A DNA stretch of 64,000 bases from Escherichia coli. GTDB lineage: Bacteria; Pseudomonadota; Gammaproteobacteria; Enterobacterales; Enterobacteriaceae. Below the pieces are notes generated by a model. The model was not told where the DNA came from. It searched no databases and worked only from the letters and a program-made list of their open reading frames with translations. Both the position numbers and the translations under genes were made by a program. The DNA lies in assembly GCF_044324785.1 (NCBI RefSeq), contig NZ_CP172127.1; one strand, written 5' to 3'. Shown here piece after piece: positions 16,745 to 60,511 of this stretch; position 1 is the stretch's first letter; each line of letters opens with the position of its first letter.

Positions 16745-16963
16745 TTATTCGCGAAACTGACTGCGCGGCATGATATTGACCGTTTCGTGCAGCTCCGACC
16801 ATACCAGCACCGCTTCTCCGCACTGTAGCTGGCGTTTGACGTCGGCGACTTTCTGTTCAAGTGTACGCTCATGTTCACCATAATCGGTGCCTTCACGTAA
16901 CACAAAGCTTTCAATTAAATTTTCCAGCGTTTCGGGGGAGAGGTCTTGCCACGGAATCAACAT
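16745..16963 (-). CDS. yheU: UPF0270 protein YheU
   Basis: 72 aa [32 protein letters not shown]. Confidence 0.9.
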
Positions 16964-17979
16964 GATTTCGCCTCCAGATACGTTGTTAACCAGTCAGGAA
17001 TGCGTGACTCCAGCCACATTTGCGGATGAAGTAACGTACCGCCAATAAAGCCAACATGACCGCCATGTTCAGTCAGTTGATACTCCACCTGCGGGGGGAG
17101 ACTTTCCGGTTTCGGGATCACCTGATGATCCATAAACGGATCGTCTTTGGCGTGAATAATCAGCGTCGGTTTGGCGATCCGGTTCAGCATCGGCATGGCG
17201 CTACACTGACGATAATAGTCGATAGCGTCAGCGTAGCCGTGAATTCTGGCGGTGATGAGATCGTCAAATTCACGGATGCGACGTACCGATTTTAACTGCG
17301 CGAGATTAATCGGCAGTGTTCCGGGGTAGGCTGCCAGCTTGCGCGCGGCATTGGCTTTTAACAGGTTCAGCAAGTAACGCTGATAAACGCGGGAAAAGCC
17401 CTTTTCCATATGGTAACTACAGGCCTCCAGCATAAATGGCGCGGAGACAATTACCGCTGCATCAATCGGGAGGTTATTACCTTCTTTTGCCAGCAAACAG
17501 GCCAGCATATTACCGCCGAGCGAATAGCCGACGGCAGCCGTTGGCGCATGACCAAATTCGCGTTGCAGCCAGCGTAAAAACCAGCTGGCGTCTTCGGTTT
17601 CGCCCGAATGGTAAATGCGGTGCATACGGTTTGGTTCACCGCTGCATCCGCGAAAATGCATCACCACGCCCAGCCAGCCACGCTTTTGCGCCGCCTCAAC
17701 CAGACCGTGGGCGTAAGGGCTATTGAGACTGCCTTCGAGCCCGTGAAACACGACTAAACGCGGTTTATGCCGCGCCTGTGCAGGATCTTCACTCCACGCG
17801 AGATCGACAAAATCGCCGTCGGGCAACTCCAGTCGCTGCCAGTGCGGGGTGAATTTCACCTTGCGACGAAACAGACGCGGCAGCATGGTTTGTAGATGAC
17901 AATTGCTAAAGCCGCGCATGGGGGTGAATTCAGCACTGCTGCTGAATTCATTGGCATCGGTCGTCGTTATCTGCGCCAT
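16957..17979 (-). CDS. yheT: alpha/beta hydrolase YheT
   Basis: 340 aa [21 protein letters not shown]; ATG overlaps the displaced yheS stop (TGATG). Confidence 0.93.
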
Positions 17980-18074
17980 CAGTTGCTTTGGCCTTCCAGC
18001 AGCATCTGCTCAAGCTGCTCCTGGGCTTCCAGCCATGCCATTTCGCACTCTTCCAGGCCGGATTTGGCGCTGGC
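17979..18074 (-). pseudogene. yheS: displaced 3' fragment of yheS (last 30 codons plus stop), separated from the gene body by the IS
   Basis: Minus-strand translation of 18071-17982 gives SAKSGLEECEMAWLEAQEQLEQMLLEGQSN then stop, the native YheS C-terminus; no start codon of its own. Confidence 0.85.
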
Positions 18075-21455: not shown

Positions 21456-22010
21456 ATGATGTCTCAGCCAGCGAAAGTTTTGCTGCTGTATGCCCATCCG
21501 GAATCTCAGGACTCGGTGGCAAACCGGGTACTGCTTAAACCGGCCACGCAGCTCAGCAATGTTACCGTGCACGACCTTTACGCGCACTATCCCGACTTTT
21601 TTATTGATATCCCTCGTGAGCAGGCATTACTGCGCGAGCACGAGGTGATTGTCTTTCAGCATCCTCTTTATACCTATAGCTGCCCGGCGCTACTGAAAGA
21701 GTGGCTGGACCGGGTATTAAGCCGTGGTTTTGCCAGCGGACCGGGGGGAAACCAACTGGCGGGAAAGTACTGGCGTAGCGTGATTACCACCGGCGAGCCG
21801 GAAAGTGCTTACCGTTATGACGCCTTGAATCGCTACCCGATGAGCGATGTTCTGCGCCCCTTTGAACTGGCGGCGGGCATGTGCCGGATGCATTGGTTGA
21901 GTCCCATCATTATTTACTGGGCGAGACGGCAAAGCGCACAGGAGCTGGCGAGTCACGCCAGAGCCTACGGTGACTGGCTGGCAAATCCGCTGTCTCCAGG
22001 AGGCCGCTGA
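21456..22010 (+). CDS. kefG: KefB ancillary protein (NAD(P)H-quinone oxidoreductase-like)
   Basis: 184 aa [23 protein letters not shown]; stop overlaps the kefB start. Confidence 0.93.
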
Positions 22011-23815
22011 TGGAAGGTTCCGATTTTTTACTCGCAGGAGTGCTGTTTCTCTTCGCGGCGGTGGCTGCGGTGCCGTTGGCATCGCGGCTGGGGATTGGCG
22101 CTGTGTTGGGATATTTGCTGGCAGGGATTGCAATTGGCCCGTGGGGGCTGGGGTTTATTAGCGACGTCGATGAGATCCTCCACTTTTCGGAACTCGGCGT
22201 GGTGTTCCTGATGTTTATCATCGGCCTGGAGTTGAATCCTTCCAAACTTTGGCAATTGCGACGCTCGATTTTTGGCGTAGGCGCGGCACAGGTGCTGTTA
22301 AGCGCGGCGTTGCTGGCGGGATTATTGATGCTGACGGATTTCGCCTGGCAGGCGGCGGTGGTCGGTGGCATTGGCCTTGCGATGTCTTCAACTGCAATGG
22401 CGTTGCAATTGATGCGTGAGAAAGGGATGAATCGCAGCGAATCCGGGCAGTTAGGCTTCTCGGTACTGCTGTTTCAGGATCTGGCGGTGATCCCGGCGCT
22501 GGCGTTAGTGCCGTTGTTGGCGGGGGCGGCAGACGAACATTTCGACTGGATGAAGATCGGCATGAAGGTGCTGGCGTTTGTCGGCATGCTGATTGGCGGG
22601 CGCTATTTACTGCGTCCGGTATTCCGTTTTATTGCAGCTTCTGGCGTGCGGGAAGTGTTCACCGCCGCGACGCTACTGCTGGTGTTGGGTTCCGCATTGT
22701 TTATGGATGCGCTGGGGCTGTCGATGGCGCTTGGTACGTTTATTGCGGGCGTGTTGCTGGCAGAAAGCGAATATCGCCACGAACTGGAAACGGCTATCGA
22801 TCCCTTCAAAGGCTTGCTGCTCGGTTTGTTCTTTATCTCTGTCGGCATGTCGCTCAATCTCGGGGTGCTTTATACCCATCTGTTGTGGGTAGTGATAAGC
22901 GTGGTTGTGCTGGTGACGGTGAAAATTCTCGTGCTGTATCTGCTGGCGCGATTATATGGCGTGCGTAGCTCAGAGCGGATGCAGTTTGCTGGCGTGTTGA
23001 GTCAGGGCGGTGAGTTTGCCTTTGTGCTCTTTTCTACCGCTTCTTCACAACGCTTATTCCAGGGCGACCAGATGGCGCTATTGCTGGTGACGGTGACGCT
23101 TTCCATGATGACCACGCCGCTGCTGATGAAGCTGGTAGATAAATGGCTATCCCGCCAGTTTAACGGACCGGAAGAAGAAGTCGAAAAACCGTGGGTCAAC
23201 GATGATAAACCGCAGGTCATTGTCGTGGGCTTTGGGCGTTTTGGTCAGGTGATTGGTCGCTTGCTGATGGCAAATAAAATGCGCATTACTGTGCTGGAGC
23301 GGGATATCAGCGCCGTTAACCTGATGCGCAAATATGGCTACAAAGTTTATTACGGCGACGCCACGCAGGTCGATCTTTTACGTTCTGCGGGAGCAGAGGC
23401 CGCTGAGTCTATCGTCATTACCTGTAACGAGCCGGAAGACACCATGAAGCTGGTGGAAATATGCCAGCAGCACTTTCCGCATTTGCATATTCTTGCGCGA
23501 GCGCGCGGACGTGTGGAGGCGCATGAGTTATTACAGGCAGGGGTGACGCAGTTTTCTCGTGAGACATTCTCCAGTGCGTTAGAGCTGGGGCGCAAGACGC
23601 TGGTCACGCTTGGCATGCATCCACATCAGGCGCAGCGGGCGCAACTGCATTTTCGCCGCCTGGATATGCGGATGTTGCGGGAGCTCATCCCAATGCATGC
23701 CGACACCGTACAAATTTCTCGCGCCAGGGAAGCCCGACGCGAACTGGAAGAGATTTTCCAGCGTGAAATGCAACAAGAACGACGCCAGCTGGACGGCTGG
23801 GATGAATTTGAGTAG
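22010..23815 (+). CDS. kefB: glutathione-regulated K+ efflux antiporter
   Basis: 601 aa ORF with CPA2 membrane domain and C-terminal KTN/RCK domain. Confidence 0.95.
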
Positions 23816-26049: not shown

Positions 26050-26176
26050 ATTACAGGCCGGATATAATTAGTGCTGGAAAGCGGAACCTCCGCTGTATTA
26101 ATTTAGTTACCCGCATCATTAATGAGCCTGCCCTGAAAAGTTAACGACAGGCTCCTGAAAAGGAGTGTTTTTTTTC

Positions 26177-27284
<1,108 letters not shown>

Positions 27285-27285
<1 letters not shown>

Positions 27286-27644
27286 TGAAACGAATTGCGT
27301 TTGTTTTTTCTACTGCGCCTCATGGTACAGCTGCTGGTCGGGAAGGTTTAGATGCTTTACTGGCAACTTCCGCATTAACTGACGATCTGGCTGTCTTCTT
27401 TATTGCTGATGGCGTTTTTCAGCTGTTGCCAGGACAAAAGCCCGATGCAGTGCTGGCGCGTGATTACATTGCCACTTTTAAATTGTTGGGTCTGTACGAC
27501 ATTGAACAGTGCTGGGTTTGTGCGGCTTCACTGCGCGAACGCGGGTTAGGTCCGCAGACATCCTTTGTTGTCGAAGCCACGCCGCTCGAAGCAGATGCCT
27601 TACGCCGCGAACTCGCCAACTACGATGTTATTTTGAGGTTTTGA
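27285..27644 (+). CDS. tusC: tRNA 2-thiouridine synthesis protein TusC
   Basis: 119 aa ORF, DsrF-like; start overlaps the tusD stop. Confidence 0.93.
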
Positions 27645-27651
27645 GGCGTTT

Positions 27652-27939
27652 ATGCTGCATACATTACATCGTTCACCCTGGCTGACGGATTTTGCTGCGC
27701 TGCTGCGTCTGCTCAGTGAAGGCGACGAACTGCTATTATTGCAAGATGGCGTAACTGCCGCAGTTGACGGTAACCGCTACCTTGAAAGTCTGCGTAATGC
27801 CCCCATTAAGGTCTATGCCCTGAACGAAGACCTTATTGCCCGCGGTTTGACTGGTCAAATTTCGAACGATATCATTCTCATTGACTATACTGATTTCGTC
27901 AGACTTACGGTTAAGCACTCCAGCCAGATGGCCTGGTGA
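27652..27939 (+). CDS. tusB: tRNA 2-thiouridine synthesis protein TusB
   Basis: 95 aa [28 protein letters not shown], DsrH-like. Confidence 0.93.
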
Positions 27940-28520: not shown

Positions 28521-29006
<486 letters not shown>

Positions 29007-36405: not shown

Positions 36406-37083
36406 TTAATACGAGATCCAGGCCAGATACCCCAGGTTTATCATGCTGCCGAGCGCAAGCCACGGGCCGAATGCGATAGTGGTTATAGTCCGGCGTTGCA
36501 GAAGTTGTGAAACGATGGCGTAACCAATGCCACCCAGTGAGGCAATCAGCAGTATCATTGGCAACGTTTGCCAGCCACACCATGCGCCTGCAGCGGCCAG
36601 TAGCTTGAAATCACCGTAGCCCAATCCCTCTTTGTGACAAACTAACCAGACGCCCCAGTAAACACACCACAGCACCCCATAGCCCGCTACCGCGCCGTAA
36701 ACCGCATCATGTAAATCAATTAATCCATACTGCGCATTAAATACCAAGCCAAGCCAGAGCAGCGGTAAGGTGAGTTTGTCGGGCAGGAGCTGAGTGCGAA
36801 AATCAATAACACTGAGCGTGAGTACGAAACAGAAATAGAGAAAGAGTGCGCCAGTCACGATGGGCGTGAAAGGTGCCAGGGCGCAGGCGATAGCAGCAGC
36901 AACACAAAGTATCAGGGGCACTGTATCATTCCAGGCATATTTTTTTTGCCGGAAATGAACCAATACCTGGCGAAACGTTAACGCCGTTTTATCCTCCAAA
37001 GGCGAGAGGTGATAGGCCATGGCATTAACAAAATAACCTGCAATAAAACCAACCAGAATGAAGAGCGGCAGTAGCATTGCCAT
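36406..37083 (-). CDS. gspO: prepilin peptidase (type II secretion)
   Basis: 225 aa polytopic membrane ORF at the distal end of the gsp operon. Confidence 0.9.
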   Translation of the reverse strand: MAMLLPLFILVGFIAGYFVNAMAYHLSPLEDKTALTFRQVLVHFRQKKYAWNDTVPLILCVAAAIACALAPFTPIVTGALFLYFCFVLTLSVIDFRTQLLPDKLTLPLLWLGLVFNAQYGLIDLHDAVYGAVAGYGVLWCVYWGVWLVCHKEGLGYGDFKLLAAAGAWCGWQTLPMILLIASLGGIGYAIVSQLLQRRTITTIAFGPWLALGSMINLGYLAWISY

Positions 37084-37544
37084 TATTGTTGCTCCCTGAA
37101 GGACAAATGCTTGAGGGTGATCTCTTCGTTTCCGGCAAGAGTAAACTGAAGATCTTCAATAACAATACCGTGTGTTATCTGTGCCGTAGTGAGCCAGCGG
37201 GAGACGTTTTCGAGGGGAGCTGTGACAGGATGAATTGTCAGAGTATTGTCCGGACCGTTTTCCAGCGTGATAGTCAAATTCTCACGTTTTGCTTCCTCGA
37301 GAAGGATATTTTTGATGGGCTGCGTAAGCGCAGGATGACCAAGTAAACCATGGGTGCTCGCTTGATCCTGCATCCATTTGATGTCCTTCTTAATTTTTTG
37401 CGCGTGGGACTGATGCTCTGCAATGTAGGTATCTATCGGTTTTATCACCCCAAGCCAACAAAAAACGCCGAGCGAGAGAACCGCCAGTGCCGCAACGAGC
37501 TGTTTTTCCGATGTGGATTTTTCTGCCCACCATGATTTAATCAT
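37083..37544 (-). CDS. gspM: type II secretion protein M
   Basis: ORF track 161 aa from 37568; an ATG at 37544 (MIKSWWAEKSTSEKQ, 153 aa) lies directly after the gspL stop and is the more likely start. Confidence 0.85.
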   Translation of the reverse strand: MIKSWWAEKSTSEKQLVAALAVLSLGVFCWLGVIKPIDTYIAEHQSHAQKIKKDIKWMQDQASTHGLLGHPALTQPIKNILLEEAKRENLTITLENGPDNTLTIHPVTAPLENVSRWLTTAQITHGIVIEDLQFTLAGNEEITLKHLSFREQQ

Positions 37545-38707
37545 TTCCCTGAGCTCCTTACTGTCCATACGCCACTGACCGGATCTTTTTCTGTTTTTTC
37601 CATCGGAAGCCAGGACTGTGTTAATTCACAGAAACGATCGATATTGGCTTCACTCTTAGCACTCATTTTTAAGGTCAGCGACTTTTGCTTCTGGCTATAG
37701 TTCGCCTCCATTAACTGCAGTTCAGGGTGTTCCAGCAGAAGTGTTTGTAAATGATAGAGCAACGGCACAGCTTCAGGATATTGCTGAGCGAGTTGCTGCT
37801 TAAAGTAAAAACGAAAGTTGTGGGTGCGTTTGATTTGCGGGAAATAACGTTGCCAGGTTTCTTGCTGTTGTTGCTGAAGTTGATCTTCAATCTTAAGCGT
37901 ATGCCAGAGCGCGATGCCCCGGCTGCCAACAAAAGAAAGAATGGCGAGAACGAGACAGCTTACTGCCAGGCGGGCGAGCCATTTTCCCGATTTTCTTACA
38001 GTTTTCTGTTTACGAAAAACACCATGCAGCATGTCATAGCGCTGGAATGCAATATCGGCAGAATACAAACTCAGTGATGGTATTTCAGGATGCTGGATAA
38101 GTGGATTGGCCACTGCAACGCCGTGAGGTGCTACACCATAACAAAGCATATTCTCAGGCGGAAACTGGGCAGCAAGATGCTGTAACCAGTGTTCATCCAG
38201 TTCGTTGAAGGCATGTGCGGCACTGCGAATGAGCCAGCTTGTTTGCTGGTTAACCAGAGTCCAGCTATCTACTTCCCAGGGAAGATAGCAGCCATCTGGC
38301 AAAACCCGCGTCACGTTGAGTCCGGCAGTATGTAAACGCTCAAGATAGCGACTGAGTTTCTCCGACTGAATGCCTATCACCTCGACACTTTCGTTTTGTT
38401 TATCGACAACCGTCCAGTGCCAGTCCTGGGTGTTGTCGGGTAACGTCTCCTCTGCCAGCCATTGCAATGTTTGTGCGGTGAGTTTGTATTTGACGTTGGG
38501 CAGCGTGAGGGAACGATATAAAAGACCCTCTGGTGGGATCAAAAGATGAACATTTCCGGCACCGGGCTGATCGGCCAGCGACTCCAGCGGAAGATCGTCT
38601 GTGAGCGTATGTACCGAAGATACGCTATCTGCGGAGAACGTCATCCATTCCCAATGCTTACGCAGCGTCGAGGAAGAACGTATAACCATCAACGATTCAG
38701 GCATCAC
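37541..38707 (-). CDS. gspL: type II secretion protein L
   Basis: 388 aa ORF (387 if the second Met is used); operon position. Confidence 0.88.
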   Translation of the reverse strand: MMPESLMVIRSSSTLRKHWEWMTFSADSVSSVHTLTDDLPLESLADQPGAGNVHLLIPPEGLLYRSLTLPNVKYKLTAQTLQWLAEETLPDNTQDWHWTVVDKQNESVEVIGIQSEKLSRYLERLHTAGLNVTRVLPDGCYLPWEVDSWTLVNQQTSWLIRSAAHAFNELDEHWLQHLAAQFPPENMLCYGVAPHGVAVANPLIQHPEIPSLSLYSADIAFQRYDMLHGVFRKQKTVRKSGKWLARLAVSCLVLAILSFVGSRGIALWHTLKIEDQLQQQQQETWQRYFPQIKRTHNFRFYFKQQLAQQYPEAVPLLYHLQTLLLEHPELQLMEANYSQKQKSLTLKMSAKSEANIDRFCELTQSWLPMEKTEKDPVSGVWTVRSSGK

Positions 38708-38718
38708 GATCCTTATGA

Positions 38719-39702
38719 TTAGTAGAGTTGCAGCGTACGCCGATAGATTTGGGCGCTCTGCTGTTTACGGTTGAAAAAAATATGGCTTTGCCATCCCTGG
38801 GATTGTTCGTCGCTGATACTTTCCGTACTCAGCGTAAAATAGCGGCTATAGGGAAAGAGATGCCCTTTCACCTGAGCTACCAGAGGCTTCACGCCGGAGA
38901 AATCCTGCTGCGCCCAGTAAAGAAATGCATCCGTGGTTAGCCAGCCTTCCCTGGGCCTTTTTTGTAATAAGACCCGAGCGTCAGCATCCGTGATGTTATT
39001 GAGGAATAACGCTCTGAAGAGCGGAATATCGTTCTCAGTAAGCATATTAAGATTGATGCTAAGTTCCGTGGTTGGGAGAACGCAGACATACGGGATAAGT
39101 CGCTGATAGATGTTTTCGGTTATGCCTTTTATCTGACGCAATTCGCCGGTCAGAAAAAGCATCTGATTGGCGCTATGGCGAGGCGGCGTTTGGCTTTGGT
39201 AAAAGTTATCTTCTGCGCCGTGAAAGCGTGGCGAATCATCGGCATCAATATAGTCAGCGATTGATTGCACGATCTCATCGGTGTTTCCGCGATCGATACC
39301 GGCGTTAATCAGCAGCGCACTGAATACCTGGGTGGGAAAATCAGGGGAAGCCAGCGGGTCGTCAGAGATTTTTGCTAACGCATTGAGATTAAAACAGTGC
39401 TGGGCATCGCGTAACTGCCACTTCACTGTATTGCCATCTTCCAGCTGCAACTGTTGCGGCTGTGCCCAGTACTGCTGCAACGTGGTCTGTCTGTCGTTAT
39501 CTTTAACGTCCTGGGTGAGGCTGGCAAGCGCAAGTTTCTCCGCCAGTTCAATATCATATTGCCGTTGCAGATGATGGTTTACCTGGCGGGTTCGCTGAAG
39601 CTGGCTGTGAAAACTGAGCGTCATGTCTGCTGCCAGAGCAGCCATGAGCGCCAGTAGCATCAGCACAATGAGCAGCGCGACGCCGCGTTGTTCATTATTC
39701 AT
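38719..39702 (-). CDS. gspK: type II secretion minor pseudopilin K
   Basis: 327 aa [28 protein letters not shown]. Confidence 0.9.
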   Translation of the reverse strand: MNNEQRGVALLIVLMLLALMAALAADMTLSFHSQLQRTRQVNHHLQRQYDIELAEKLALASLTQDVKDNDRQTTLQQYWAQPQQLQLEDGNTVKWQLRDAQHCFNLNALAKISDDPLASPDFPTQVFSALLINAGIDRGNTDEIVQSIADYIDADDSPRFHGAEDNFYQSQTPPRHSANQMLFLTGELRQIKGITENIYQRLIPYVCVLPTTELSINLNMLTENDIPLFRALFLNNITDADARVLLQKRPREGWLTTDAFLYWAQQDFSGVKPLVAQVKGHLFPYSRYFTLSTESISDEQSQGWQSHIFFNRKQQSAQIYRRTLQLY

Positions 39703-40282
39703 GGTTATTATTCCCGGCCTGAGTCTGAGCTGGCGACTCTTCTCTTGCTAATTGCTCAGGTAATGCAAAACGACACTGTAGTGCCCCATATTGCTGAGTC
39801 TTCAGATGTAGCGTGACTGAGAGAGGATGTTCTTTGCTTTCCCCGCTGTTACTTTCCAGAAGAAAGCTCTCGACATGTTCCAGCATCGCCTGGGCAGGTT
39901 GATCCTTCCTGCCATCCACAGAAGTACGAACAGCACGGTAAAGCGTATGATTTCGTAGATACCAGTGAACTGTGAGTAAGGTTTGTGCTTCACTGAGAGG
40001 AGCCAGCGGATCACGACTTTGCGTGGTAAAAATAGCTTCTTCACCCAACACCATGATCTTGTCCGTACTCCGATTCCTCCGGGCGACCAATTGCAGGAGA
40101 TCGTTATCAAGAATGGTGATGGTGCGCTGTAGCTGATTGAACTGCTGGATTTCTTTCTGTGAACGTTGATGCAACTCGGAAGCTTGCGAAAAAATCATAA
40201 ACGCCAGCACGCTAAGCATTGAGAAAATCGCCAGCGCCGCCATGACCTCCAGCAATGTGAAACCCTGCTGGCGATTAATCAT
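39695..40282 (-). CDS. gspJ: type II secretion minor pseudopilin J
   Basis: 195 aa [23 protein letters not shown], prepilin N-terminus. Confidence 0.9.
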
Positions 40283-40652
40283 CTTGTGCCTGCCCGGATT
40301 TATTATCGATGCTTTGATAACGCGTAAGCGAGGTTGTCTGACCGCTGGGTAATGTCACCGTTATGGTGCGTTCCAGAAGCGTGCCGTCTTTGCTTGAGTG
40401 GATATCGCTGCGCCAGTTCCACTCTTCGCCATTTATTAACTCTTTGCCAGAACTGGACGTGTTTTCCTCGCCGAATGAATCTTGTGACTGAAGCTGGTTA
40501 TCCGCTATCCACAATGCCAGCGTCTCGTTGCGCATTCGCTCGATGGCATTTCGTTGCCCTTGCATACTGCTCATTAAAGTCAGAGCAACAGCGGTGAAAA
40601 TACTCATCGCCAGTAAGACTTCAAGCAGTGTCATCCCTGATTGTTTGTTCAT
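40275..40652 (-). CDS. gspI: type II secretion minor pseudopilin I
   Basis: 125 aa from the ATG at 40652 ([19 protein letters not shown]), overlapping the gspH stop as ATGA; the ORF-track start at 40691 is an extension. Confidence 0.88.
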
Positions 40653-41158
40653 GGGCGGGTATCTCTGACGAGCGTTTGATCCAGGGGCCATGATCCTGAA
40701 CAGACTAACGTTAGGAGCGGCTCACCGGTCCCGGCGTTAGCCATCAACAAAGAGAAGGGCGTGATTTGTCCGTCGGCCAGAACCACCACCTGCGGTTGGT
40801 TGCTGTCATCAGGTTTAAATGGCTGAAGTTGAATTGAGAGTTCTTCACCCCAGTCATTTTTGCTCTCGTCTGCGGCATCTTCTTGTAATGGAACCCAGCG
40901 CCAGGCTGATGGTGTTTTGCCCGGTACCATAATGCGCCATGCTGAATCAGAGAAATGGATACCGACAGGCTGACCACTCAGCGTGGCGCGGTCGATGGCT
41001 AATTCAAGTGCAGCGGTAAACCGCGCCGCTGTTTCGCGCGCACGAGTGTTGGCGGTATCTTCCCGACCATATGTGAAGAGCACCACACTTGCCGTGATAG
41101 CGACCAGCGCCAGCACCAGCATCATCTCCAGCAGGGTAAACCCGCGTTGCTGATTCAT
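40649..41158 (-). CDS. gspH: type II secretion minor pseudopilin H
   Basis: 169 aa [22 protein letters not shown]. Confidence 0.9.
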
Positions 41159-41165
41159 CGCTGAC

Positions 41166-41603
41166 TTACTTTTTCTTCTTGCTCAAACCCCAGTTGGTGA
41201 TGTCATCCTCGGTTCCCATTTCACCATCGGGTCCTGCTGAAAGCAGATCGTATGCACCATGTTCACCAGGATTAACGAGGACATAATCATTGCCCCAGGG
41301 ATCGGCAGGCAGACGCTTGATATAACCTTCTTTGTTATAGTTTGCGGCCAGCGGTGGTAGTGTCGGTGCTTCGACTAAGGATTCAAGTCCCTGATTTGTG
41401 GTTGGATAGCGATGATTGTCGAGCTTGTACATATCCAGGGCGTTTTCCAGCGCCACAATATCGCTGACGGCTTTTTGATTATCCGCCTTTTCTTTATTGC
41501 CCATCAGGTTGGGAACCACCAGGCTGGCAAGTACGCCGATAATGACGATCACCACCATAATTTCCAGTAATGTAAAACCGCGTTGCTTATCCGTTGCGCG
41601 CAT
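41166..41603 (-). CDS. gspG: type II secretion major pseudopilin G
   Basis: 145 aa [29 protein letters not shown]. Confidence 0.93.
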   Translation of the reverse strand: MRATDKQRGFTLLEIMVVIVIIGVLASLVVPNLMGNKEKADNQKAVSDIVALENALDMYKLDNHRYPTTNQGLESLVEAPTLPPLAANYNKEGYIKRLPADPWGNDYVLVNPGEHGAYDLLSAGPDGEMGTEDDITNWGLSKKKK

Positions 41604-41612
41604 TGTTTTTCC

Positions 41613-42809
41613 TTAGTTAATCATTGAGTTAAGTTGAAGAAGAGGTTGGAGTACCGACACGACAATAAACAGGACGATCAGTGCCATCGTAATAATGAGC
41701 GCTGGCTCGAAGATGGAGAGCGTTAAGGCGATCCGATTTTGTTGGAGTGTCTCCTGGTTATCTGCGGCTCTGACCATTAACGTGCCGAGCTGCCCGCTTT
41801 TTTCGCCAGAGGCCACCATGTAGAGCATCATCGGCGGGAAAATTGCGGTTTGTTCCAGCGAAAGATGAATGCTGTTACCCTGGCGGACGTTCTCTGCCGC
41901 ATTTGCCAGACGCTTGCGGATTTCGAGGTTGCTGAGACTTTCGGTGGACAAATTCATCCCATCCAGCAGAGGGACGCCGCTGGATTGCAAAATACTTAAA
42001 GTGCGGAGATAGCGTGCGCTGTTAATGGTGCAAATCAGCGGGCCGATGAGTGCAACGCGTAGCAATATGGCATGAAAACGGTGGCGGTTATTGCCGCGTT
42101 TTAACCAGAGCCAGAAACCTACAGCGACAATAAACACTGTCGCTAGTAATGTCGGGCCGGTATGTTGCAACGTGTCGCTCAGACCTAAAAGAATGCGTGT
42201 ACTCAGCGGCAGTTGCTGCTTCATATGCACGAACTGTTCGGTAATTTTGGGCACGACAGCAGTGAGGAGAATAATCACGACCACAATCGCCACCGCAGTC
42301 AGCATGCAGGGGTAGATCAGCGACTGAATGAGTTTGCTGCGGATTTTCTGCCGATTTTCATTGTAATCAGCCAGTTTTTCCAACACCGGGGCCAGCAGCC
42401 CGCTCTTTTCGCCCGCTTTAACCAGGGTACGGTAGAGCGAATCGAAAAGCGTGGGAAAATGTTGTAACGCATCGGAAAGGGGATGCCCTTCAAGGATGGC
42501 GCTGCGTACCTGATTTAACACATCAGCCAGTCGTTTATTACTGCTTTGTTGACCGATTACGGCAAGGCTCTCTTCCAGAGGTAATGCCGCTGCGCTTAAG
42601 GTTGCCAACTGCCGGGTGAAAAGCGTCAGTTCACTATGGCTGATCCTCGGGCGACGTGTTTTTACTCCCGAACTTTTTTGGGGGCGAATATCCAGCAGGA
42701 AAAGCCCTTCTTCACGCAGCCGCAGTCGTGCCTGACGTTCATCGTTAGCATCAATGATCCCTTGCAATTTTTGACCATCCTGGGTCATGGCGCGATAGCG
42801 ATAATTCAT
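41613..42809 (-). CDS. gspF: type II secretion inner-membrane platform protein F
   Basis: 398 aa ORF; start overlaps the gspE stop. Confidence 0.93.
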
Positions 42810-44287
42810 GCTTCGCTCTCCAGCGTGGCACTGGCGACGCGCATAACCTCATCCCAGGAGGTGTCACCGCTTATCACTTTTTGCAGGCCATTTTTGATTA
42901 AGGCATTGTGTTGTTGCCGGACCAGTCGCTCCAGTGCTTGTTCATCCACATTTTCATGAATAGCGGCCCGCAATTCCGGCGTCACCACCATCATTTCGTG
43001 GATCGCCATGCGCCCCTGATAGCCGGATTGATGGCAATGAGGGCAGCCTACGGGAGTGCCAATTGTCGTCACCGCGAGCTGATGATGTTTAAACATCTGC
43101 GCTTGTTGCGGCGATACAGGCGTGAATTGTCGGCATTGCGGACACAGACGACGAACCAGACGTTGCGCGATAATCCCTGCCAGTGAAGACGAAAGCAGGA
43201 ATGATTCGACGCCCATGTCGCGTAGCCGGGTGACTGCGCCTGATGCACTGTTAGTGTGGAGTGTTGAGAGTACCAGATGGCCTGTGAGCGAGGCCTGAAC
43301 CGCAATTTGCGCGGTTTCTGTATCACGAATCTCCCCCACCATGACGACATCCGGGTCCTGGCGAAGTATGGCGCGCAGGCCGCGAGCGAAAGACATATCC
43401 ACGCGGGTATTCACCTGCGTTTGTCCTATGCCTTCCAGTTCATATTCCACGGGATCTTCTACCGTCAGAATATTACGGCCAGGGGTATTAAGCGCCGAAA
43501 GAATGGCGTAGAGCGTGGTGCTTTTACCGGAGCCTGTCGGCCCTGTTACCAGGATAATACCGTGCGGAAGCTGAATGAGATTTTCTAAATCCTGTTTATC
43601 CGCTGCCGTCATCCCCAGGTTGTTCAATGAAAGCTGGAGGCTGTTTTTATCCAGTAGGCGGAGCACAGCGCGTTCACCATAGATGGATGGCAGTGTGGAT
43701 ACGCGGACATCTATGTTACGTCGCCCGATACGCAAACTGATTCTTCCATCCTGTGGAATACGTTTTTCGGCGATATCAAGACGAGCCATGACCTTAATTC
43801 GGGAGATAAGCAGTGCCGCCAGTTTTTTGTTGGGCTGTAAAATTGTCCGCAAAACGCCGTCGATGCGAAAACGGATCGACATTGTTTTTTCATAGGTTTC
43901 AATGTGGATATCGGAGGCGGTTTCTTTGATGGCCTCACTCAAAATAGCATTGATCAAGCGGATAACGGGTGCCGCTGAATCTTCATTCAGCAGATCTTCA
44001 TTTGCGGGCATCTCTTCCGAAAGCGAGAGAAGATCGACGGATTGATCGATATCCTGCGCAATCTGTTGCGACTCACCGGTATTCTGATGGAATACCGCTT
44101 CCAGCCGGGCTTCGAAATCAGCCTGTGACAAACTGGTCATGGTCTGGCACTGACCAACCTGACGCTGAATATCGAGTAACCGCTCGAATGGCGTATCGGC
44201 GAGATAAATAATCTCGCCCTCTGAATAGAGATAACCAATTCGTTGTGCCAGCGCCCAACTGGCGGGGTACGGTGAGTGAATTTTCAT
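42806..44287 (-). CDS. gspE: type II secretion ATPase E
   Basis: 493 aa ORF, Walker [13 protein letters not shown]-terminal CxxC pairs. Confidence 0.95.
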
Positions 44288-44296
44288 AAGAATGCC

Positions 44297-46249
44297 TCAC
44301 CGTGACGATGGCGCAGGGGCGTGACTGTTGAACGTGTTCTCATTCAGCACCGGCAAATCTTCCGAGCCAACCAGCGCTTTTGATTTCCCGTCGATTCGCA
44401 GCTGTTGCTCCTGACGGTAGCGGGTGTATTTCTCTTTTGACAGTGAGCGATAAACATCATCGTCACGGATAATCGTCGGGCGGATAAATACCATCAGGTT
44501 GCGTTTAGCGCGCTCGGTCGAGGTATAGCGGAAGAGTTGTCCCACTAAAGGAATATCGCCAAGCAGAGGAACCTTTGACACTTGCTCTTTAGAAAAATCA
44601 TCCAGCAATCCGCCCAGGACCACCGTTTCACCGGTTTTGACCAGCACGGCATTTTGAATAGTTCGGGTGTTAAATGTCGGGCCGAGCGTCGAATTAGACG
44701 AAGAGTCAACGCTGGAGACTTCCTGCTCTATTTCGAGCAACACCGCGTCGCCTTCATTGACCTGCGGAGTGACTTTGAGTTTTGTCCCCACCGTTTTGCG
44801 TTCGACTGTATTAAAGACGTTATCCCCAGAAGTGGTCTGGGAGCCGGATAGCACCGGCACATCCTGCCCAACGTTGAAGGACGCGAGTTTATTATCCAGC
44901 GTTACGATGCTCGGGGTGGCGAGGATGTCATTTTTATTATTACTGGCCAGCGCAGTCAACAATACGCCCCAGTCGCCATTGAAGAAGCCTGCGGCCATGC
45001 CATTGTAGGCGCTAAACATATCCCAGGCAGGATTCGCGCTGGTGATCCCACCATTCTTTTTATAATCAGCCACACCTTGCGCAGCGTTAAAAATCGGTAA
45101 TCCCGTATTGGTAAATTGCTGTGTGCCAACGTTTTTATTCGCCCATTGCACGCCGAGGTTGAGTCCATTTCCATCCTGAACTTCAACGATGATTGCCTCA
45201 ACCAGCACCTGTGCACGGCGAATATCCAGACGTGCAATTACCGTGGCGAGTTTCTCCTGGACGGGCTGGTCAGCGGTAATGACCAAAGAGTTGGTCTGTT
45301 CATCAGCGGTAATGGCGACATTATCCATCGCAGAAGTAGAAGAAGGCTTACGCGAATTCCCTTTTTCATCTTTCAGCTTTTCGGAAACACCGGTTAACAC
45401 TTCCACCAGATTCGTGGCCTTGGCATATTTCAGGTAATAGACCCGGGTATTTCCTTCCTCGCTCTCTTCAACATCAAGTGTTTTCAGTAACGAGGTGATG
45501 CGCTGACGTGCCTTTTCCGGCCCGCTGATAATAAGTGAGTTCGTTCGCTTATCTGCCACAATCTTCGCGGAAAGGAGGGCTGGCATCTGGCTTTTACCGT
45601 GGCTTTCGCTGATTAATTGATTCAAAATTTCGGCGAGATCTTCCGCTGACGCATATTCCAGATGAATAATTTGCTGCTTCTCTGTGCCGATGACATCAAC
45701 GCGCTTTATGACTTCAATCAGTTTATTAATGGTGGAGGCACGACCGGTCAGAATAAGAACGTTGGAGGGTTCATAATGCACGACATTGCCGACGCTGCCG
45801 CCATCCATCATTTGGCGAAGCAGAGGGGCAAGATCACGAGCAGGAACGTTCTCAAGCGGTACGATACGAGTGACCAACTCATCACCAGCGCCAGGACGAG
45901 AACTGTCAGCAATCATCCCTGGTGATGTTTTTACATTAGCTGAGCGCACCACTTTCAGAAAACCATTGTCCAGCGTGATCACGGAATAACCGTAAAGATC
46001 AAGAATACTTAAAAAGAACTGGTAGTACTCCTGTTGGCTAAACGTATCATTACTGCGTACGGAAATGGTTCCCTGTACCGAAGGGTCGATCAGGATCGTT
46101 TTGCCAAGATGCTGACCCACTATTTCCACGAACTGGCGGATATCGGCGTTATTGAAGTTAGCGCCGTATTGTTCGTTCTCAGCGTGCCCTGCACAAGGCA
46201 TGAGTAGTGCTGCCAGCAAGCAGCAGGTGATTTTATTGAGTCCTTTCAT
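44297..46249 (-). CDS. gspD: type II secretion secretin D
   Basis: ORF track 654 aa from 46261; the ATG at 46249 ([23 protein letters not shown], 650 aa) is the more likely start. Confidence 0.9.
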
Positions 46250-47048
46250 GACGCTGTCCATTCATTCCTGTAAGTTCCGCGACGGAAACATTTATCAAGC
46301 GGGGTACGCCGTTGCGACGAATTGTAAACTGAGCACTTTGTTGAGTTAGCAGTAAACTTAATGCCTGTGAAACCTCATCAGGGTGGGTCAGCGAAAGATT
46401 ATTGATCCTGAGGGCGATATCCCCTGGTTGTAGCAAGCTGGTGGTAAATGCGTTTAGGCCCTGACGAGGGTTCAATCGAAGCCCGTATATCTGTTCTCCA
46501 TCACGTATAGGCGTGGCGATAATATAATCAGCGAGTACATTTTGACTTTCCGAATCAGGCTGCTTGATGATGTCAGGTAGCCCTGGATGGAGTGTTACTT
46601 TTTCGTAATGCCCGTGAGTTTCAAACACAACGCTGGTTTTATTTATTTTTCTAATAAACGTTCCCGGCGCTGACTCAAGGGCTTCGTTGAGGGAGTATCG
46701 CTTTTGTTCGCTCCCCTCATTAATTAAGACAAAAGAAGTCTCATCATTCGATGTGAGTACAATACCATTAAGCGCTATAGAGAGCTTCGGTGTTTCCTGA
46801 TTAACTGCCACGGGATTTGCATCTTTTACCCCAGCATGATTATCGTTGCGCCATAAAGCGGCAAGGCTGAACTCAGACTGAAATGCATTTGTTGGTTGAT
46901 TAATGATCTGTCCATTTTTAACTATAGTTGTATGGAAATAATTCACATTAAAAATAATCAGCCCTATACTTATAAATATAATCAATATATTGATGGCAGC
47001 ATCTTTATTATGATTCGCCAGATGGAAGGGGAAGCGTAGTGTGGGCAC
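46233..47048 (-). CDS. gspC: type II secretion protein C
   Basis: 271 aa ORF with N-terminal TM segment; first gene of the gspC-O operon. Confidence 0.9.
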
Positions 47049-47227: not shown

Positions 47228-48697
47228 ATGTCTACGAGAAGAGAAGTTATTCTTTCCTGGTTACGTGAGAAACGTCAGACCTGGCGTCTGTGCTATTTGT
47301 TGGGTGAGGCTGGAAGTGGAAAAACCTGGCTGGCGCAGCAACTACAAAAAGATAAACATCGCCGTGTGATTACTTTAAGCCTCGTTGTTTCCTGGCAAGG
47401 TAAGGCCGCATGGATCGTTACCGACGATAATGCGGCTGAACAGGGCTGCCGTGACAGCGCCTGGACGCGAGATGAGATGGCGGGTCAATTACTGTATGCG
47501 CTTCATCGAACTGATAGTCGCTGCCCTCTTATTATTATTGAAAATGCTCACCTGAATCACCGCCGCATACTGGATGATCTCCAACGCGCGATATCTCTTA
47601 TTCCTGACGGTCAATTTTTGCTGATCGGCAGACCCGATCGAAAAGTCGAACGTGATTTTAAAAAACAGGGCATTGAACTTGTCTCGACAGGACGTCTGAC
47701 GGAGCACGAGCTTAAGGCAAGCATCCTTGAAGGTCAGAATATTGACCAGCCCGATCTCCTTTTAACTGCCAGAGTTCTGAAACGGATAGCTTTATTATGT
47801 CGGGGAGATCGCAGAAAGCTGGCGCTTGCCGGCGAAACAATTAGCTTATTACAGCAAGCCGAGCAGACCAGCGTTTTCACTGCAAAACATTGGCGAATGA
47901 TTTACCGCGTATTAGGTGATAACCGCCCCCGGAAAATGCAGCTTGCCGTGGTGATGAGTGGAACCATTATCGCACTTACCTGTGGTTGGCTACTGCTGTC
48001 CTCTTTCACAGATCCGTTCCCCGTTCCTGCGTGGCTGGTACCCGTAACGCCAGTAGTTAAACAAGATATGACTAAGGATATTGCTCATGTAGTGATGCGC
48101 GATAGTGAGGCGCTAAGCGTGTTATACGGCGTATGGGGGTACGAGGTCCCAGCTGATTCGGCCTGGTGCGATCAGGCAGTAAGAGCGGGGCTGGCATGTA
48201 AAAGTGGGAATGCTTCTTTACAAACATTGGTAGATCAGAATTTGCCCTGGATCGCATCGCTTAAAGTCGGGGACAAAAAATTGCCTGTTGTGGTCGTTCG
48301 CGTCGGTGATGCTACCGTTGATGTCCTCGTAGGGCAGCAAACCTGGACGCTGACACATCAATGGTTTGAGTCGGTATGGACGGGTGATTATCTTCTGTTA
48401 TGGAAAATGTCGCCGGAAGGGGAGAGTACCATTACGCGTGATAGCAGCGAGGAAGAGATTCTCTGGCTGGAAACGATGTTAAACCGCGCATTGCATATTT
48501 CGACAGAACCTTCGGCAGAGTGGCGTCCCTTGTTGGTAGAAAAAATAAAGCAATTTCAAAAAAGCCACCACTTGAAAACTGACGGTGTTGTTGGCTTTTC
48601 AACGTTAGTACATCTCTGGCAGGTGGCAGGGGAGAGTGCCTACTTATATCGGGATGAAGCAAATATTTCCCCGGAAACAACAGTGAAGGGGAAATGA
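47228..48697 (+). CDS. gspA: type II secretion accessory protein A (AAA+ ATPase, peptidoglycan-binding C-terminus)
   Basis: 489 aa ORF, Walker A LGEAGSGKT. Confidence 0.92.
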   Translation: MSTRREVILSWLREKRQTWRLCYLLGEAGSGKTWLAQQLQKDKHRRVITLSLVVSWQGKAAWIVTDDNAAEQGCRDSAWTRDEMAGQLLYALHRTDSRCPLIIIENAHLNHRRILDDLQRAISLIPDGQFLLIGRPDRKVERDFKKQGIELVSTGRLTEHELKASILEGQNIDQPDLLLTARVLKRIALLCRGDRRKLALAGETISLLQQAEQTSVFTAKHWRMIYRVLGDNRPRKMQLAVVMSGTIIALTCGWLLLSSFTDPFPVPAWLVPVTPVVKQDMTKDIAHVVMRDSEALSVLYGVWGYEVPADSAWCDQAVRAGLACKSGNASLQTLVDQNLPWIASLKVGDKKLPVVVVRVGDATVDVLVGQQTWTLTHQWFESVWTGDYLLLWKMSPEGESTITRDSSEEEILWLETMLNRALHISTEPSAEWRPLLVEKIKQFQKSHHLKTDGVVGFSTLVHLWQVAGESAYLYRDEANISPETTVKGK

Positions 48698-48698
48698 C

Positions 48699-49118
48699 AT
48701 GTTTGAATTCTATATCGCCGCGCGTGAGCAGAAAGAAACAGGTCACCCTGGTATCTTCTCCCGACAAAAACACAGCACCATAATATATGTCATTTGTTTA
48801 TTGCTGATTTGCCTGTGGTTTGCAGGAATGGTGTTGGTTGGTGGGTATGCCAGGCAGCTATGGGCGCTTTGGATAGTAAAAGCAGAAGTCACAGTAGATG
48901 CTGAAACGCCCGCTTTTAAACAATCAACACAACACTATTTCTTCAAAAAACAGCCACTCCCCGTCGTCGAATCCGTCGAGGAGGAAGATGACCCCGGCGT
49001 CGCGGTTGAGAATGCCACCTCTTCTTCTGAAGACGAAGAAAATACTGTAGAAGAAAGCGACGAGAAAGCCGGTTTAAGAGAGCGTGTCAAAAATGCGCTG
49101 AACGAACTTGAGAGATAA
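48699..49118 (+). CDS. gspB: type II secretion accessory protein B
   Basis: 139 aa ORF with TM segment and acidic C-terminus. Confidence 0.88.
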   Translation: MFEFYIAAREQKETGHPGIFSRQKHSTIIYVICLLLICLWFAGMVLVGGYARQLWALWIVKAEVTVDAETPAFKQSTQHYFFKKQPLPVVESVEEEDDPGVAVENATSSSEDEENTVEESDEKAGLRERVKNALNELER

Positions 49119-60055: not shown

Positions 60056-60145
60056 AGCCAGCCAATCTTTTGTATGTCTGTGCGTTTCCATTTGAGTATC
60101 CTGAAAACGGGCTTTTCAGCATGGAACGTACATATTAAATAGTAG

Positions 60146-60511
<366 letters not shown>

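Follow-up and report, generated by a model that had tools for sequence, protein, structure and literature searches.

Do the short overlaps between neighboring genes of the gsp operon, the tus cluster, and kefGB in Escherichia coli point to coupled translation, and can they help to place the true start codons of these genes? We addressed these questions in a window of 64,000 nucleotides (the whole stretch of DNA that was analyzed; RefSeq contig NZ_CP172127.1). This window is an ordinary segment of the E. coli chromosome, collinear in reverse orientation with K-12 at ~3.44 to 3.50 Mb, with 96 to 100% identity to E. coli MEI003 and K-12 and with gene order and gene lengths unchanged. The gene set of the alpha type II secretion system (T2SS; C, D, E, F, G, H, I, J, K, L, M, and O) is complete and in the conserved order (Table 1), with gspAB, bfr, and chiA as neighbors. 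Adjoining genes of the DsrE, DsrE, and DsrH families between yheO (upstream) and rpsL (downstream) are the TusBCD cluster of the RefSeq annotation. The sole Rfam match in the region was the alpha-operon ribosome-binding site at 60076-60187.

Table 1. Genes at closely spaced junctions, with positions in the window, annotated starts, and longest ORFs (SD, Shine-Dalgarno site)
Gene	Coordinates	Strand	Start and length	Junction or other feature
gspC	46233..47048	-	GTG start; 271 aa	TAA stop (46235-46233) lies 17 nt within gspD
gspD (secretin)	44297..46249	-	Annotated ATG 46249, 650 aa; longest-ORF ATG 46261, 654 aa
gspE (ATPase)	42806..44287	-		+9 nt from gspD stop; TGA stop inside ATGA shared with gspF
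gspF	41613..42809	-	ATG 42809	4-nt overlap with gspE stop, ATGA 42806-42809
gspG (major pseudopilin)	41166..41603	-		+9 nt past gspF; leader MRATDKQRG/FTLLE
gspH	40649..41158	-		+7 nt past gspG; TGA stop in ATGA shared with gspI
gspI	40275..40652	-	Annotated ATG 40652, 125 aa; longest-ORF ATG 40691 (+13 residues), 138 aa	4-nt overlap with gspH, ATGA 40649-40652
gspJ	39695..40282	-		8-nt overlap with gspI, ATGATTAA at 40275-40282
gspK	38719..39702	-		8-nt overlap with gspJ, ATGAATAA at 39695-39702
gspL	37541..38704	-	Annotated ATG 38704; longest-ORF GTG 38707, one codon earlier	+14 nt past gspK
gspM	37083..37544	-	Annotated ATG 37544, 153 aa; longest-ORF ATG 37568 (+8 residues), 161 aa	4-nt overlap with gspL, ATGA 37541-37544
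gspO (prepilin peptidase)	36406..37083	-		1-nt overlap with gspM, TAATG at 37083
kefG	21459..22010	+	Tandem ATGATG starts, 21456 and 21459	Stop inside TGATG shared with kefB
kefB	22010..23815	+		1-nt overlap with kefG, TGATG at 22010; SD CAGGAGG 5 nt upstream
yheO	26177..26899	+	Annotated ATG 26177, 240 aa; longest-ORF GTG 26165, 244 aa	GTG 26165 inside SD AAGGAGTG
tusD	26899..27285	+		1-nt overlap with yheO, TAATG at 26899
tusC	27285..27644	+		1-nt overlap with tusD, TGATG at 27285
tusB	27652-27939			7-nt gap after tusC

With the starts annotated in curated K-12 and in RefSeq, and with junction sequences read directly, the stop-to-start distances within the gsp operon are -17 (C/D), +9 (D/E), -4 (E/F), +9 (F/G), +7 (G/H), -4 (H/I), -8 (I/J), -8 (J/K), +14 (K/L), -4 (L/M), and -1 (M/O), and the overlap is 1 nt at each of kefG/kefB, yheO/tusD, and tusD/tusC. 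The gspC/gspD overlap grows to 29 nt if the longest ORF of gspD is used. The overlaps named in a sequence-only reading of this DNA (gspE/F, H/I, I/J, J/K, and L/M, yheO/tusD, tusD/tusC, and kefG/kefB) are all present. However, its list for the gsp operon omitted gspM/gspO and gspC/gspD, and the span to which it assigned all of them (36406-47048) covers the gsp operon alone, the kef and tus junctions (22010, 26899, and 27285) lying 9 to 15 kb to the left. Distances between -8 and +6 nt are found at E/F, H/I, I/J, J/K, L/M, M/O, kefG/B, yheO/tusD, and tusD/C, while gspC/D at -17 falls outside this coupling range. We also rejected the idea that the overlaps reflect frameshifting or gene fusion, as every downstream gene has its own start aligned to the N termini of its homologues.

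Across E. coli, 707 of 2,987 unidirectional gene pairs (24%) lie between -8 and +6 nt, the commonest distances being -4, then -1, then -8, and coupling is lost once the gap reaches ~20 nt (PMC10666635). Six of the 11 gsp junctions are within these limits (binomial P of 0.028 against 24%), and 7 of the 11 overlap, compared with 8 of the 51 remaining co-directional pairs of the matching annotated locus (P of 0.0025, Fisher). Other T2SS loci were obtained by a GspG scan of genome contigs, which returned relatives of 66 to 79% identity and no Escherichia loci among the matches listed. The overlap frequency of the gsp operon is high relative to the E. coli background and slightly above that of other T2SS operons, in which 208 of 495 junctions (42%), pooled from at least 53 loci of other species, overlap. 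Seven or more overlapping junctions were reached by 4 of 53 other-species loci among the matches listed, placing 7 of 11 at the high end. The tight packing is genuine, yet typical for this kind of operon.

Gene order, gene lengths, and junction geometry are the same as in the gspC-O genes of E. coli K-12 (b3324-b3335, a cryptic alpha T2SS with divergent gspAB), which differ only by strain-level substitutions (96 to 99% DNA identity); strain MEI003 is the closest to the window, at 98.3% over the operon. The order C-D-E-F-G-H-I-J-K-L-M-(O) also recurs in Klebsiella pul, Pectobacterium and Dickeya out, Aeromonas exe, and Enterobacter and Citrobacter gsp, and T2SS relatives resemble the window in their frequent overlaps at E/F, H/I, I/J, J/K, and L/M. 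Among at least 80 loci from other Gammaproteobacteria, overlaps were present at H/I in 46 of 61, I/J in 49 of 70, J/K in 60 of 72, and L/M in 14 of 19; E/F overlapped in 28 of 74 among the matches listed, with 37 more at +1. The exact distance at each junction drifts among species between -8, -4, -1, and small gaps. Among the matches listed, I/J and J/K are mostly at -4 in relatives but at -8 in E. coli, and most relatives have a C/D gap of +13 to +22 where E. coli has a 17-nt overlap. The yheO/tusD overlap is -1 or -4 in all four other genera examined, with the same tus order and Pfam families. Ribosomal-protein operons are highly expressed and well studied, and those in the window contain similar junctions: rplD/rplW share an ATGA, and rplP/rpmC and rpmC/rpsQ each share a TAATG, a -4/-1 geometry like that of gsp, tus, and kef, which shows that the pattern is general.

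In K-12, gspC-O is silent and is described as one H-NS-repressed transcription unit (PMC5797941). Within the operon of the window, 13 promoter-like sites were found versus 13.9 expected from shuffled sequence, and 21 terminator-like matches versus 12.2 expected, most of them weak stems of 5 to 10 pairs. Division of the operon by internal promoters or terminators was rejected because the promoter-like sites are at the shuffled level and the terminator-like stems are weak.

The gspC-O, yheO-tusDCB, and kefGB genes form tightly packed units whose many 1-, 4-, and 8-nt overlaps most likely couple translation by termination-reinitiation. A ribosome ending the upstream gene would re-initiate at the adjoining start, helped by an SD within the upstream gene, and the output of the downstream protein would thereby be tied to that of its partner. 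Our inference of coupling, a standard one, draws on the junction geometry and on experiments published for other gene pairs of E. coli. Coupling would be fitting because the overlapping pairs encode partners in complexes: GspE/F, the GspH-I-J-K minor pseudopilins, GspL/M, TusB-C-D, and KefG/KefB. The termination-reinitiation pairs studied by Huber et al. in 2019 (PMC6728339) and those of PMC10666635 likewise have -4, -1, or -8 overlaps, an upstream gene that contains the SD, and products that assemble into heteromeric complexes. SDs for the downstream genes occur inside the upstream CDS at gspF, gspJ, gspK, gspM, gspO, kefB, tusD, and tusC (-4.3 to -10.3 kcal/mol; spacers of 5 to 10 nt) and are weak at gspI (-2.9) and gspD. 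No paper joining type II secretion and translational coupling with gspM was found in the literature collection searched, nor were experiments or ribosome-profiling data on these junctions found in the accessible literature.

It is conceivable, though unlikely, that the overlaps arose neutrally from genome compaction and from start and stop codon drift, with each downstream gene translated independently from its own SD. Most downstream starts are indeed preceded by a usable SD, with good ones at gspM (-8.4 kcal/mol), kefB (-10.3 kcal/mol), and tusC (-7.9 kcal/mol), and the differing junction distances among species fit such drift. Overlap lengths have also been modeled as the outcome of loss and replacement of start or stop codons (PMC3887535). 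When 15 junctions were folded and compared with shuffles, none was significantly more stable (z of -1.5 to +2.0); hence, ribosome-binding sites look accessible, structure would not stand in the way of independent initiation, and coupling could be less than strict. However, four of five native E. coli pairs at -4 were strictly coupled, bioBF being the one tested pair without coupling (PMC6728339). The sharp peaks at -4, -1, and -8 and a 4.5-fold enrichment of complex subunits (30.4% of closely spaced pairs versus 6.8% of distant pairs are subunits of heteromeric complexes) point to selection (PMC10666635), and the H/I/J/K and L/M overlaps persist in distant genera.

Coupling could instead arise by RNA unfolding, in which passage of a ribosome along the upstream gene opens a hairpin that hides the downstream ribosome-binding site and no re-initiation is involved; we regard this as improbable. 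The gspE/F junction offers a hairpin that takes in both SD and ATG (-33.5 kcal/mol; z = -1.5), and the 17-nt gspC/gspD overlap exceeds canonical re-initiation distances, longer overlaps being assigned to this model in a review (PMC12548453). The z-score was not significant at any junction, and 14 of the 15 lay between -0.9 and +2.0, leaving a general hairpin-masking mechanism unsupported. It has also been argued that at -4/-1 spacing the terminating ribosome blocks the loading of a second one (PMC12548453).

The sequence-only reading had further proposed that the longest-ORF starts of gspM, gspI, gspD, and yheO are upstream extensions. All four calls match the starts chosen for K-12 by curators and for the nearest E. 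coli genome by RefSeq (PGAP), and independent evidence supports them strongly for gspM, gspI, and yheO and moderately for gspD. For gspM, gspI, and yheO, the annotated downstream codon is the true start, and the longest-ORF starts are spurious. The annotated gspM start follows an AAGGAG SD (-8.4 kcal/mol; spacer of 8), compared with -2.4 for the long start. Among the matches listed, gspM begins at -4 or -1 from the gspL stop in 58 of 70 T2SS loci, only one of the 58 having another start farther upstream, and the proteins align at their N-terminal M..WW..RE motif. The annotated start of gspI yields a 6-residue prepilin leader, MNKQSG/MTLLE, as in ~70 homologues; leaders of GspI homologues are mostly 5 to 10 residues long, and an upstream ATG is usually absent. 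The other pseudopilin leaders in the window (MRATDKQRG/FTLLE, MNQQRG/FTLLE, and MINRQQG/FTLLE) share with it a short basic stretch ending in Gly and a Glu at +5, while the GspK leader, MNNEQRG/VALLIV, is without the Glu.

The coupling argument has no bearing on yheO because this gene is the first in its cluster. Its upstream GTG lies within the SD at a spacer of 0, its annotated ATG is invariant in 12 homologues in a Met column that is constant across genera, and the Erwinia and Sodalis loci contain zero upstream in-frame starts. For the tandem ATGs of kefG, published Ribo-RET and peptide data favor the second. In the part of the TRAINSPOTTER supplements available to us (PMC13245402), kefG is present and yheO, tusD, tusC, kefB, gspD, and gspM have no entry by gene name or UniProt accession; yheO, the tus genes, kefB, and the gsp genes are likewise absent from the accessible portions of start-site datasets.

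The true start of gspD is probably the annotated ATG at 46249. Here too the coupling argument is irrelevant, because neither start yields a canonical overlap. That translation begins at the ATG at 46261, alone or as a second start, is possible but doubtful. Both ATGs are kept in all seven E. coli sequences compared, a CAGGAA precedes the upstream ATG by 3 nt while the annotated one has no SD in range, and the predicted N-terminal stretches of signal peptides in GspD homologues vary in length, so that four extra residues would fit. However, a good SD requires more than a 3-nt spacer, re-initiating ribosomes prefer the start nearest the stop (PMC12548453), and both the curated K-12 annotation and PGAP chose 46249, whose Met aligns to PulD residue 1. 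In addition, of the three codons separating the ATGs, two differ from strain to strain in E. coli (Ser/Cys and Val/Ala). Variation at gspC/D fails as a discriminator, since substitutions there alter both reading frames and both ATGs persist in 7 of 7 sequences. Either start would give the identical mature secretin after signal-peptide cleavage at ...GHA/ENEQ. Classical N-terminal proteomics therefore cannot decide the gspD start, as the signal peptide is cleaved (the chain of PDB 5WQ7 begins ENEQ), or that of gspI, where prepilin peptidase should, judging from the cleavage motif, remove the leader; ribosome-profiling or N-terminal checks on gsp starts are further hampered because the operon is silent in K-12.

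The 17-nt overlap, the annotated gspD ATG without a usable SD, and the conservation of two in-frame ATGs at a distance of four codons raise one further idea, which we consider a long shot: at the gspC/gspD junction, secretin synthesis may strictly require translation of GspC, or two GspD precursors may arise, with signal peptides of 23 and 27 residues. If true, this would be a safeguard particular to the secretin-GspC pair and absent from relatives whose gap is +13 to +22 nt.

In summary, this observation matters little. Both the overlaps and the shorter starts are known already from curated K-12 and RefSeq annotation, and the layout is the textbook arrangement of tightly packed bacterial operons, with nothing new. 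That short overlaps signal coupled translation of complex subunits is established knowledge. The practical value is as a sanity check: longest-ORF tracks overextend 5' ends, and junction geometry together with homologue alignment corrects them.

A match to the 10.6-kb span of the gsp operon, which encodes the cryptic alpha type II secretion system (T2SS), was found in 3,120 complete Escherichia coli genomes, and the operon is carried by only 3,161 of 5,426 such genomes. The best match to this span is strain MEI003 (98.3% identity), and tiled comparison of the window with MEI003 and K-12 MG1655 gave 96-100% identity. The gene order begins with yheUTS on the minus strand and continues with kefG, kefB, yheV, slyD, slyX, fkpA, yheO, tusD, tusC, tusB, rpsL, rpsG, fusA, tufA, chiA, bfd and bfr, then gspO back to gspC (36406-47048, minus strand) and, beyond gspC, gspA, gspB and the S10, spc and alpha ribosomal-protein operons; the K-12 region at ~3.44-3.50 Mb has the same order in reversed orientation. 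The stretch most diverged from other E. coli is gspC-gspG (41000-47000, 96.3-97.7% identity), and the ribosomal-protein operons flanking gsp are 99.9-100% identical. The S7 protein specified by rpsG (28536-29006, plus strand) is 156 aa long, the form shared with MEI003, the K-12 annotation having a 179-aa form (540 nt). Across the window Rfam gave a single match, to the ribosome-binding site of the alpha operon (60076-60187, plus strand; RF00140, 102.7 bits).

All junctions were read from the sequence and then checked against the curated K-12 and RefSeq (PGAP) MEI003 annotations; these two place all of the gsp, tus and kefB starts identically. Every junction distance in the K-12 annotations of gspC-O, yheO-tusDCB and kefGB is the same as in the window. 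The eight start/stop overlaps listed by the sequence-only reading are confirmed; its list omitted the gspM/O and gspC/D overlaps, and the span that it assigned covers the gsp operon but not the tus and kef junctions, which fall 9-15 kb outside. The same -4/-1 pattern is present at rplD/rplW, rplP/rpmC and rpmC/rpsQ of the window. The yheO/tusD overlap is retained in Erwinia, Sodalis, Pectobacterium and Shimwellia, and that of tusD/tusC in two of these four. Outside these clusters, yheS and yheT share 1 nt (TGATG), and yheT and yheU share 7 nt (ATGTTGA; 16950-17985, minus strand). A single base separates gspA from gspB (TGA C ATG), and the gspA stop is additionally overlapped by an out-of-frame ATGA (48694-48701, plus strand).

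Stop-to-start distances between neighboring genes (negative values are overlaps)
Junction	Distance (nt)	Shared sequence or motif	Position
gspC/D	-17		46233-46249
gspD/E	+9		
gspE/F	-4	ATGA	42806-42809
gspF/G	+9		
gspG/H	+7		
gspH/I	-4	ATGA	40649-40652
gspI/J	-8	ATGATTAA	40275-40282
gspJ/K	-8	ATGAATAA	39695-39702
gspK/L	+14		
gspL/M	-4	ATGA	37541-37544
gspM/O	-1	TAATG	37083
kefG/kefB	-1	TGATG	22010
yheO/tusD	-1	TAATG	26899
tusD/tusC	-1	TGATG	27285
tusC/tusB	+7		

It had also been proposed that the longest-ORF starts of gspM, gspI, yheO and gspD are upstream extensions, and our results support this reading, with a caveat for gspD. Support is strong for gspM (161 aa as the longest ORF versus 153 aa annotated). 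The ATG at 37544 is preceded, with an 8-nt spacer, by AAGGAG, which pairs with the anti-Shine-Dalgarno (anti-SD) sequence of the 16S rRNA 3' end at -8.4 kcal/mol, while pairing for the ATG at 37568 is only -2.4. In 58 of 70 loci among the matches listed, a start codon of the gene that follows gspL lies at -4/-1 from the gspL stop, just 1 of these 58 having a further in-frame start upstream, and the E. coli GspM N terminus, MIKSWWAEKSTSEKQ, can be aligned with MKQWWQSKNQREQ, MMSWWNSLTTRER and similar sequences. The case for gspI (138 versus 125 aa) is equally strong and comes from the leader and the homologues, the SD being weak for both candidate starts. The ATG at 40652 gives a 6-residue prepilin leader (MNKQSG/MTLLE), resembling those of GspG, H, J and K of the same operon (6-9 residues), and in ~70 homologues among the matches listed the leader is mostly 5-10 residues; the ATG at 40691 would imply 19. 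Many gspI homologues have an in-frame stop one to three codons 5' of the start, and therefore the long form is impossible there. The ORF track over-extends gspL by one codon as well, a case absent from the sequence-only reading: the longest ORF begins at GTG 38707, immediately before the annotated ATG 38704 (GTGATG, 38704-38709, minus strand), with spacers of 1 nt (GTG) and 4 nt (ATG) to the SD AAGGA.

For yheO (244 versus 240 aa), the shorter start is strongly supported by SD and homology. Coupling has no part in this argument, as the gene stands first in its cluster. The SD AAGGAGTG ends in the very GTG at 26165 (spacer 0), and the ATG at 26177 lies 10 nt 3' of this SD (-8.2 kcal/mol). Met occupies this column in 12 of 12 homologues, from genera including Erwinia, Pectobacterium, Dickeya, Sodalis, Shimwellia, Rahnella/Rouxiella and Brenneria. 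Extensions in longer predicted homologue forms are mutually unrelated, and the Erwinia and Sodalis yheO loci have no in-frame start 5' of the matching ATG. Directly 5' of the yheO ATG is a terminator-like hairpin, GCUCCU-GAAA-AGGAGU followed by U8 (26151-26176, plus strand), whose 3' arm is the SD and which contains the spurious GTG. Both predicted folds, lowest-energy and centroid, contain it; the stability of its 96-nt context is not significant (z = -0.9), and the exact stem is without obvious conservation in Shimwellia or Erwinia. Possible roles of such a hairpin are masking of the ribosome-binding site or attenuation of yheO-tusDCB. At kefG, a tandem ATGATG (21456-21461, plus strand) is annotated from the first ATG in K-12 (184 aa) and from the second by PGAP (183 aa); a Ribo-RET start and peptide, tabulated as a 1-residue N-terminal truncation (PMC13245402 supplement), favor the second. 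The initiation signal of gspC is unusual, since the first gene of the operon has a GTG start (47048, minus strand) and no SD was detected in the 25 nt upstream. Codons 1-80 contain no in-frame ATG; the only other candidate starts there are a TTG (codon 22) and two GTGs (codons 35 and 80).

The start of gspD (654 versus 650 aa) is less clear. The ATGs at 46261 and 46249 (MKGLNK...) are four codons apart, both are present in 7 of 7 E. coli sequences, and the SD is poor at both (CAGGAA at 3 nt for 46261, none in range for 46249). The intervening codons are variable (Ser/Cys, Val/Ala), the same substitutions altering the GspC C terminus. Most homologue starts are offset by 0 to 3 residues from the annotated one, the annotated Met pairs with residue 1 of Klebsiella PulD (6HCG) in the alignment, and re-initiating ribosomes favor the start closest to the stop (PMC12548453). 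We consider it probable, though well short of certain, that 46249 is the true start. The mature secretin is the same from either, because the deposited 627-residue chain of K-12 GspD (5WQ7) opens at ENEQ, residue 24 of the 650-aa form.

The overlap geometry, SD motifs inside upstream genes and complex-forming partners (GspE/F, the minor pseudopilins, GspL/M, TusBCD and KefG/KefB) suggest that a ribosome ending the upstream gene would restart at the adjacent start, and such termination-reinitiation is most likely at the gsp, tus and kef junctions. Of five native E. coli pairs with a -4 overlap studied by Huber et al., four proved strictly coupled (PMC6728339); in the follow-up, distance dependence was steep, and complex subunits were 4.5-fold enriched among closely spaced pairs (PMC10666635). 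The gsp operon itself is silenced by H-NS in K-12 (PMC5797941). Independent initiation of the downstream genes, instead of strict coupling, is a less likely alternative; in its favor, several of these genes are preceded by a good SD site, and 0 of 15 junction RNAs were more structured than shuffled controls (z -1.5 to +2.0). The same result denies general support to coupling through RNA unfolding, for which gspE/F is the sole junction with a hairpin over SD and ATG (z = -1.5).

The overlap layout and the shorter starts were already known. Among unidirectional E. coli pairs, 707 of 2,987 (24%) lie within -8 to +6 nt, -4 being the commonest distance, then -1 and -8, and +9 to +12 forming a minor peak (PMC10666635). 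Six of 11 gsp junctions fall within -8 to +6 (binomial P = 0.028 against that 24%), and the non-overlapping ones are close to the published +10 peak. Overlaps occur at 7 of 11 gsp junctions; of the remaining 51 co-directional pairs in the same annotated locus, 8 overlap (Fisher P = 0.0025). Among the matches listed, 53 T2SS loci of other Gammaproteobacteria, each with at least 8 scorable junctions and with starts assigned heuristically as the candidate closest to the position homologous with the E. coli start, have overlaps at 208 of 495 junctions (42%) and 48% of junctions within -8 to +6; 4 of the 53 reach the 64% overlap of the window. Hence, given the excess over both backgrounds and the overlap frequency in these relatives, the gsp operon is packed more tightly than the genome at large, at a density roughly typical of the T2SS family.
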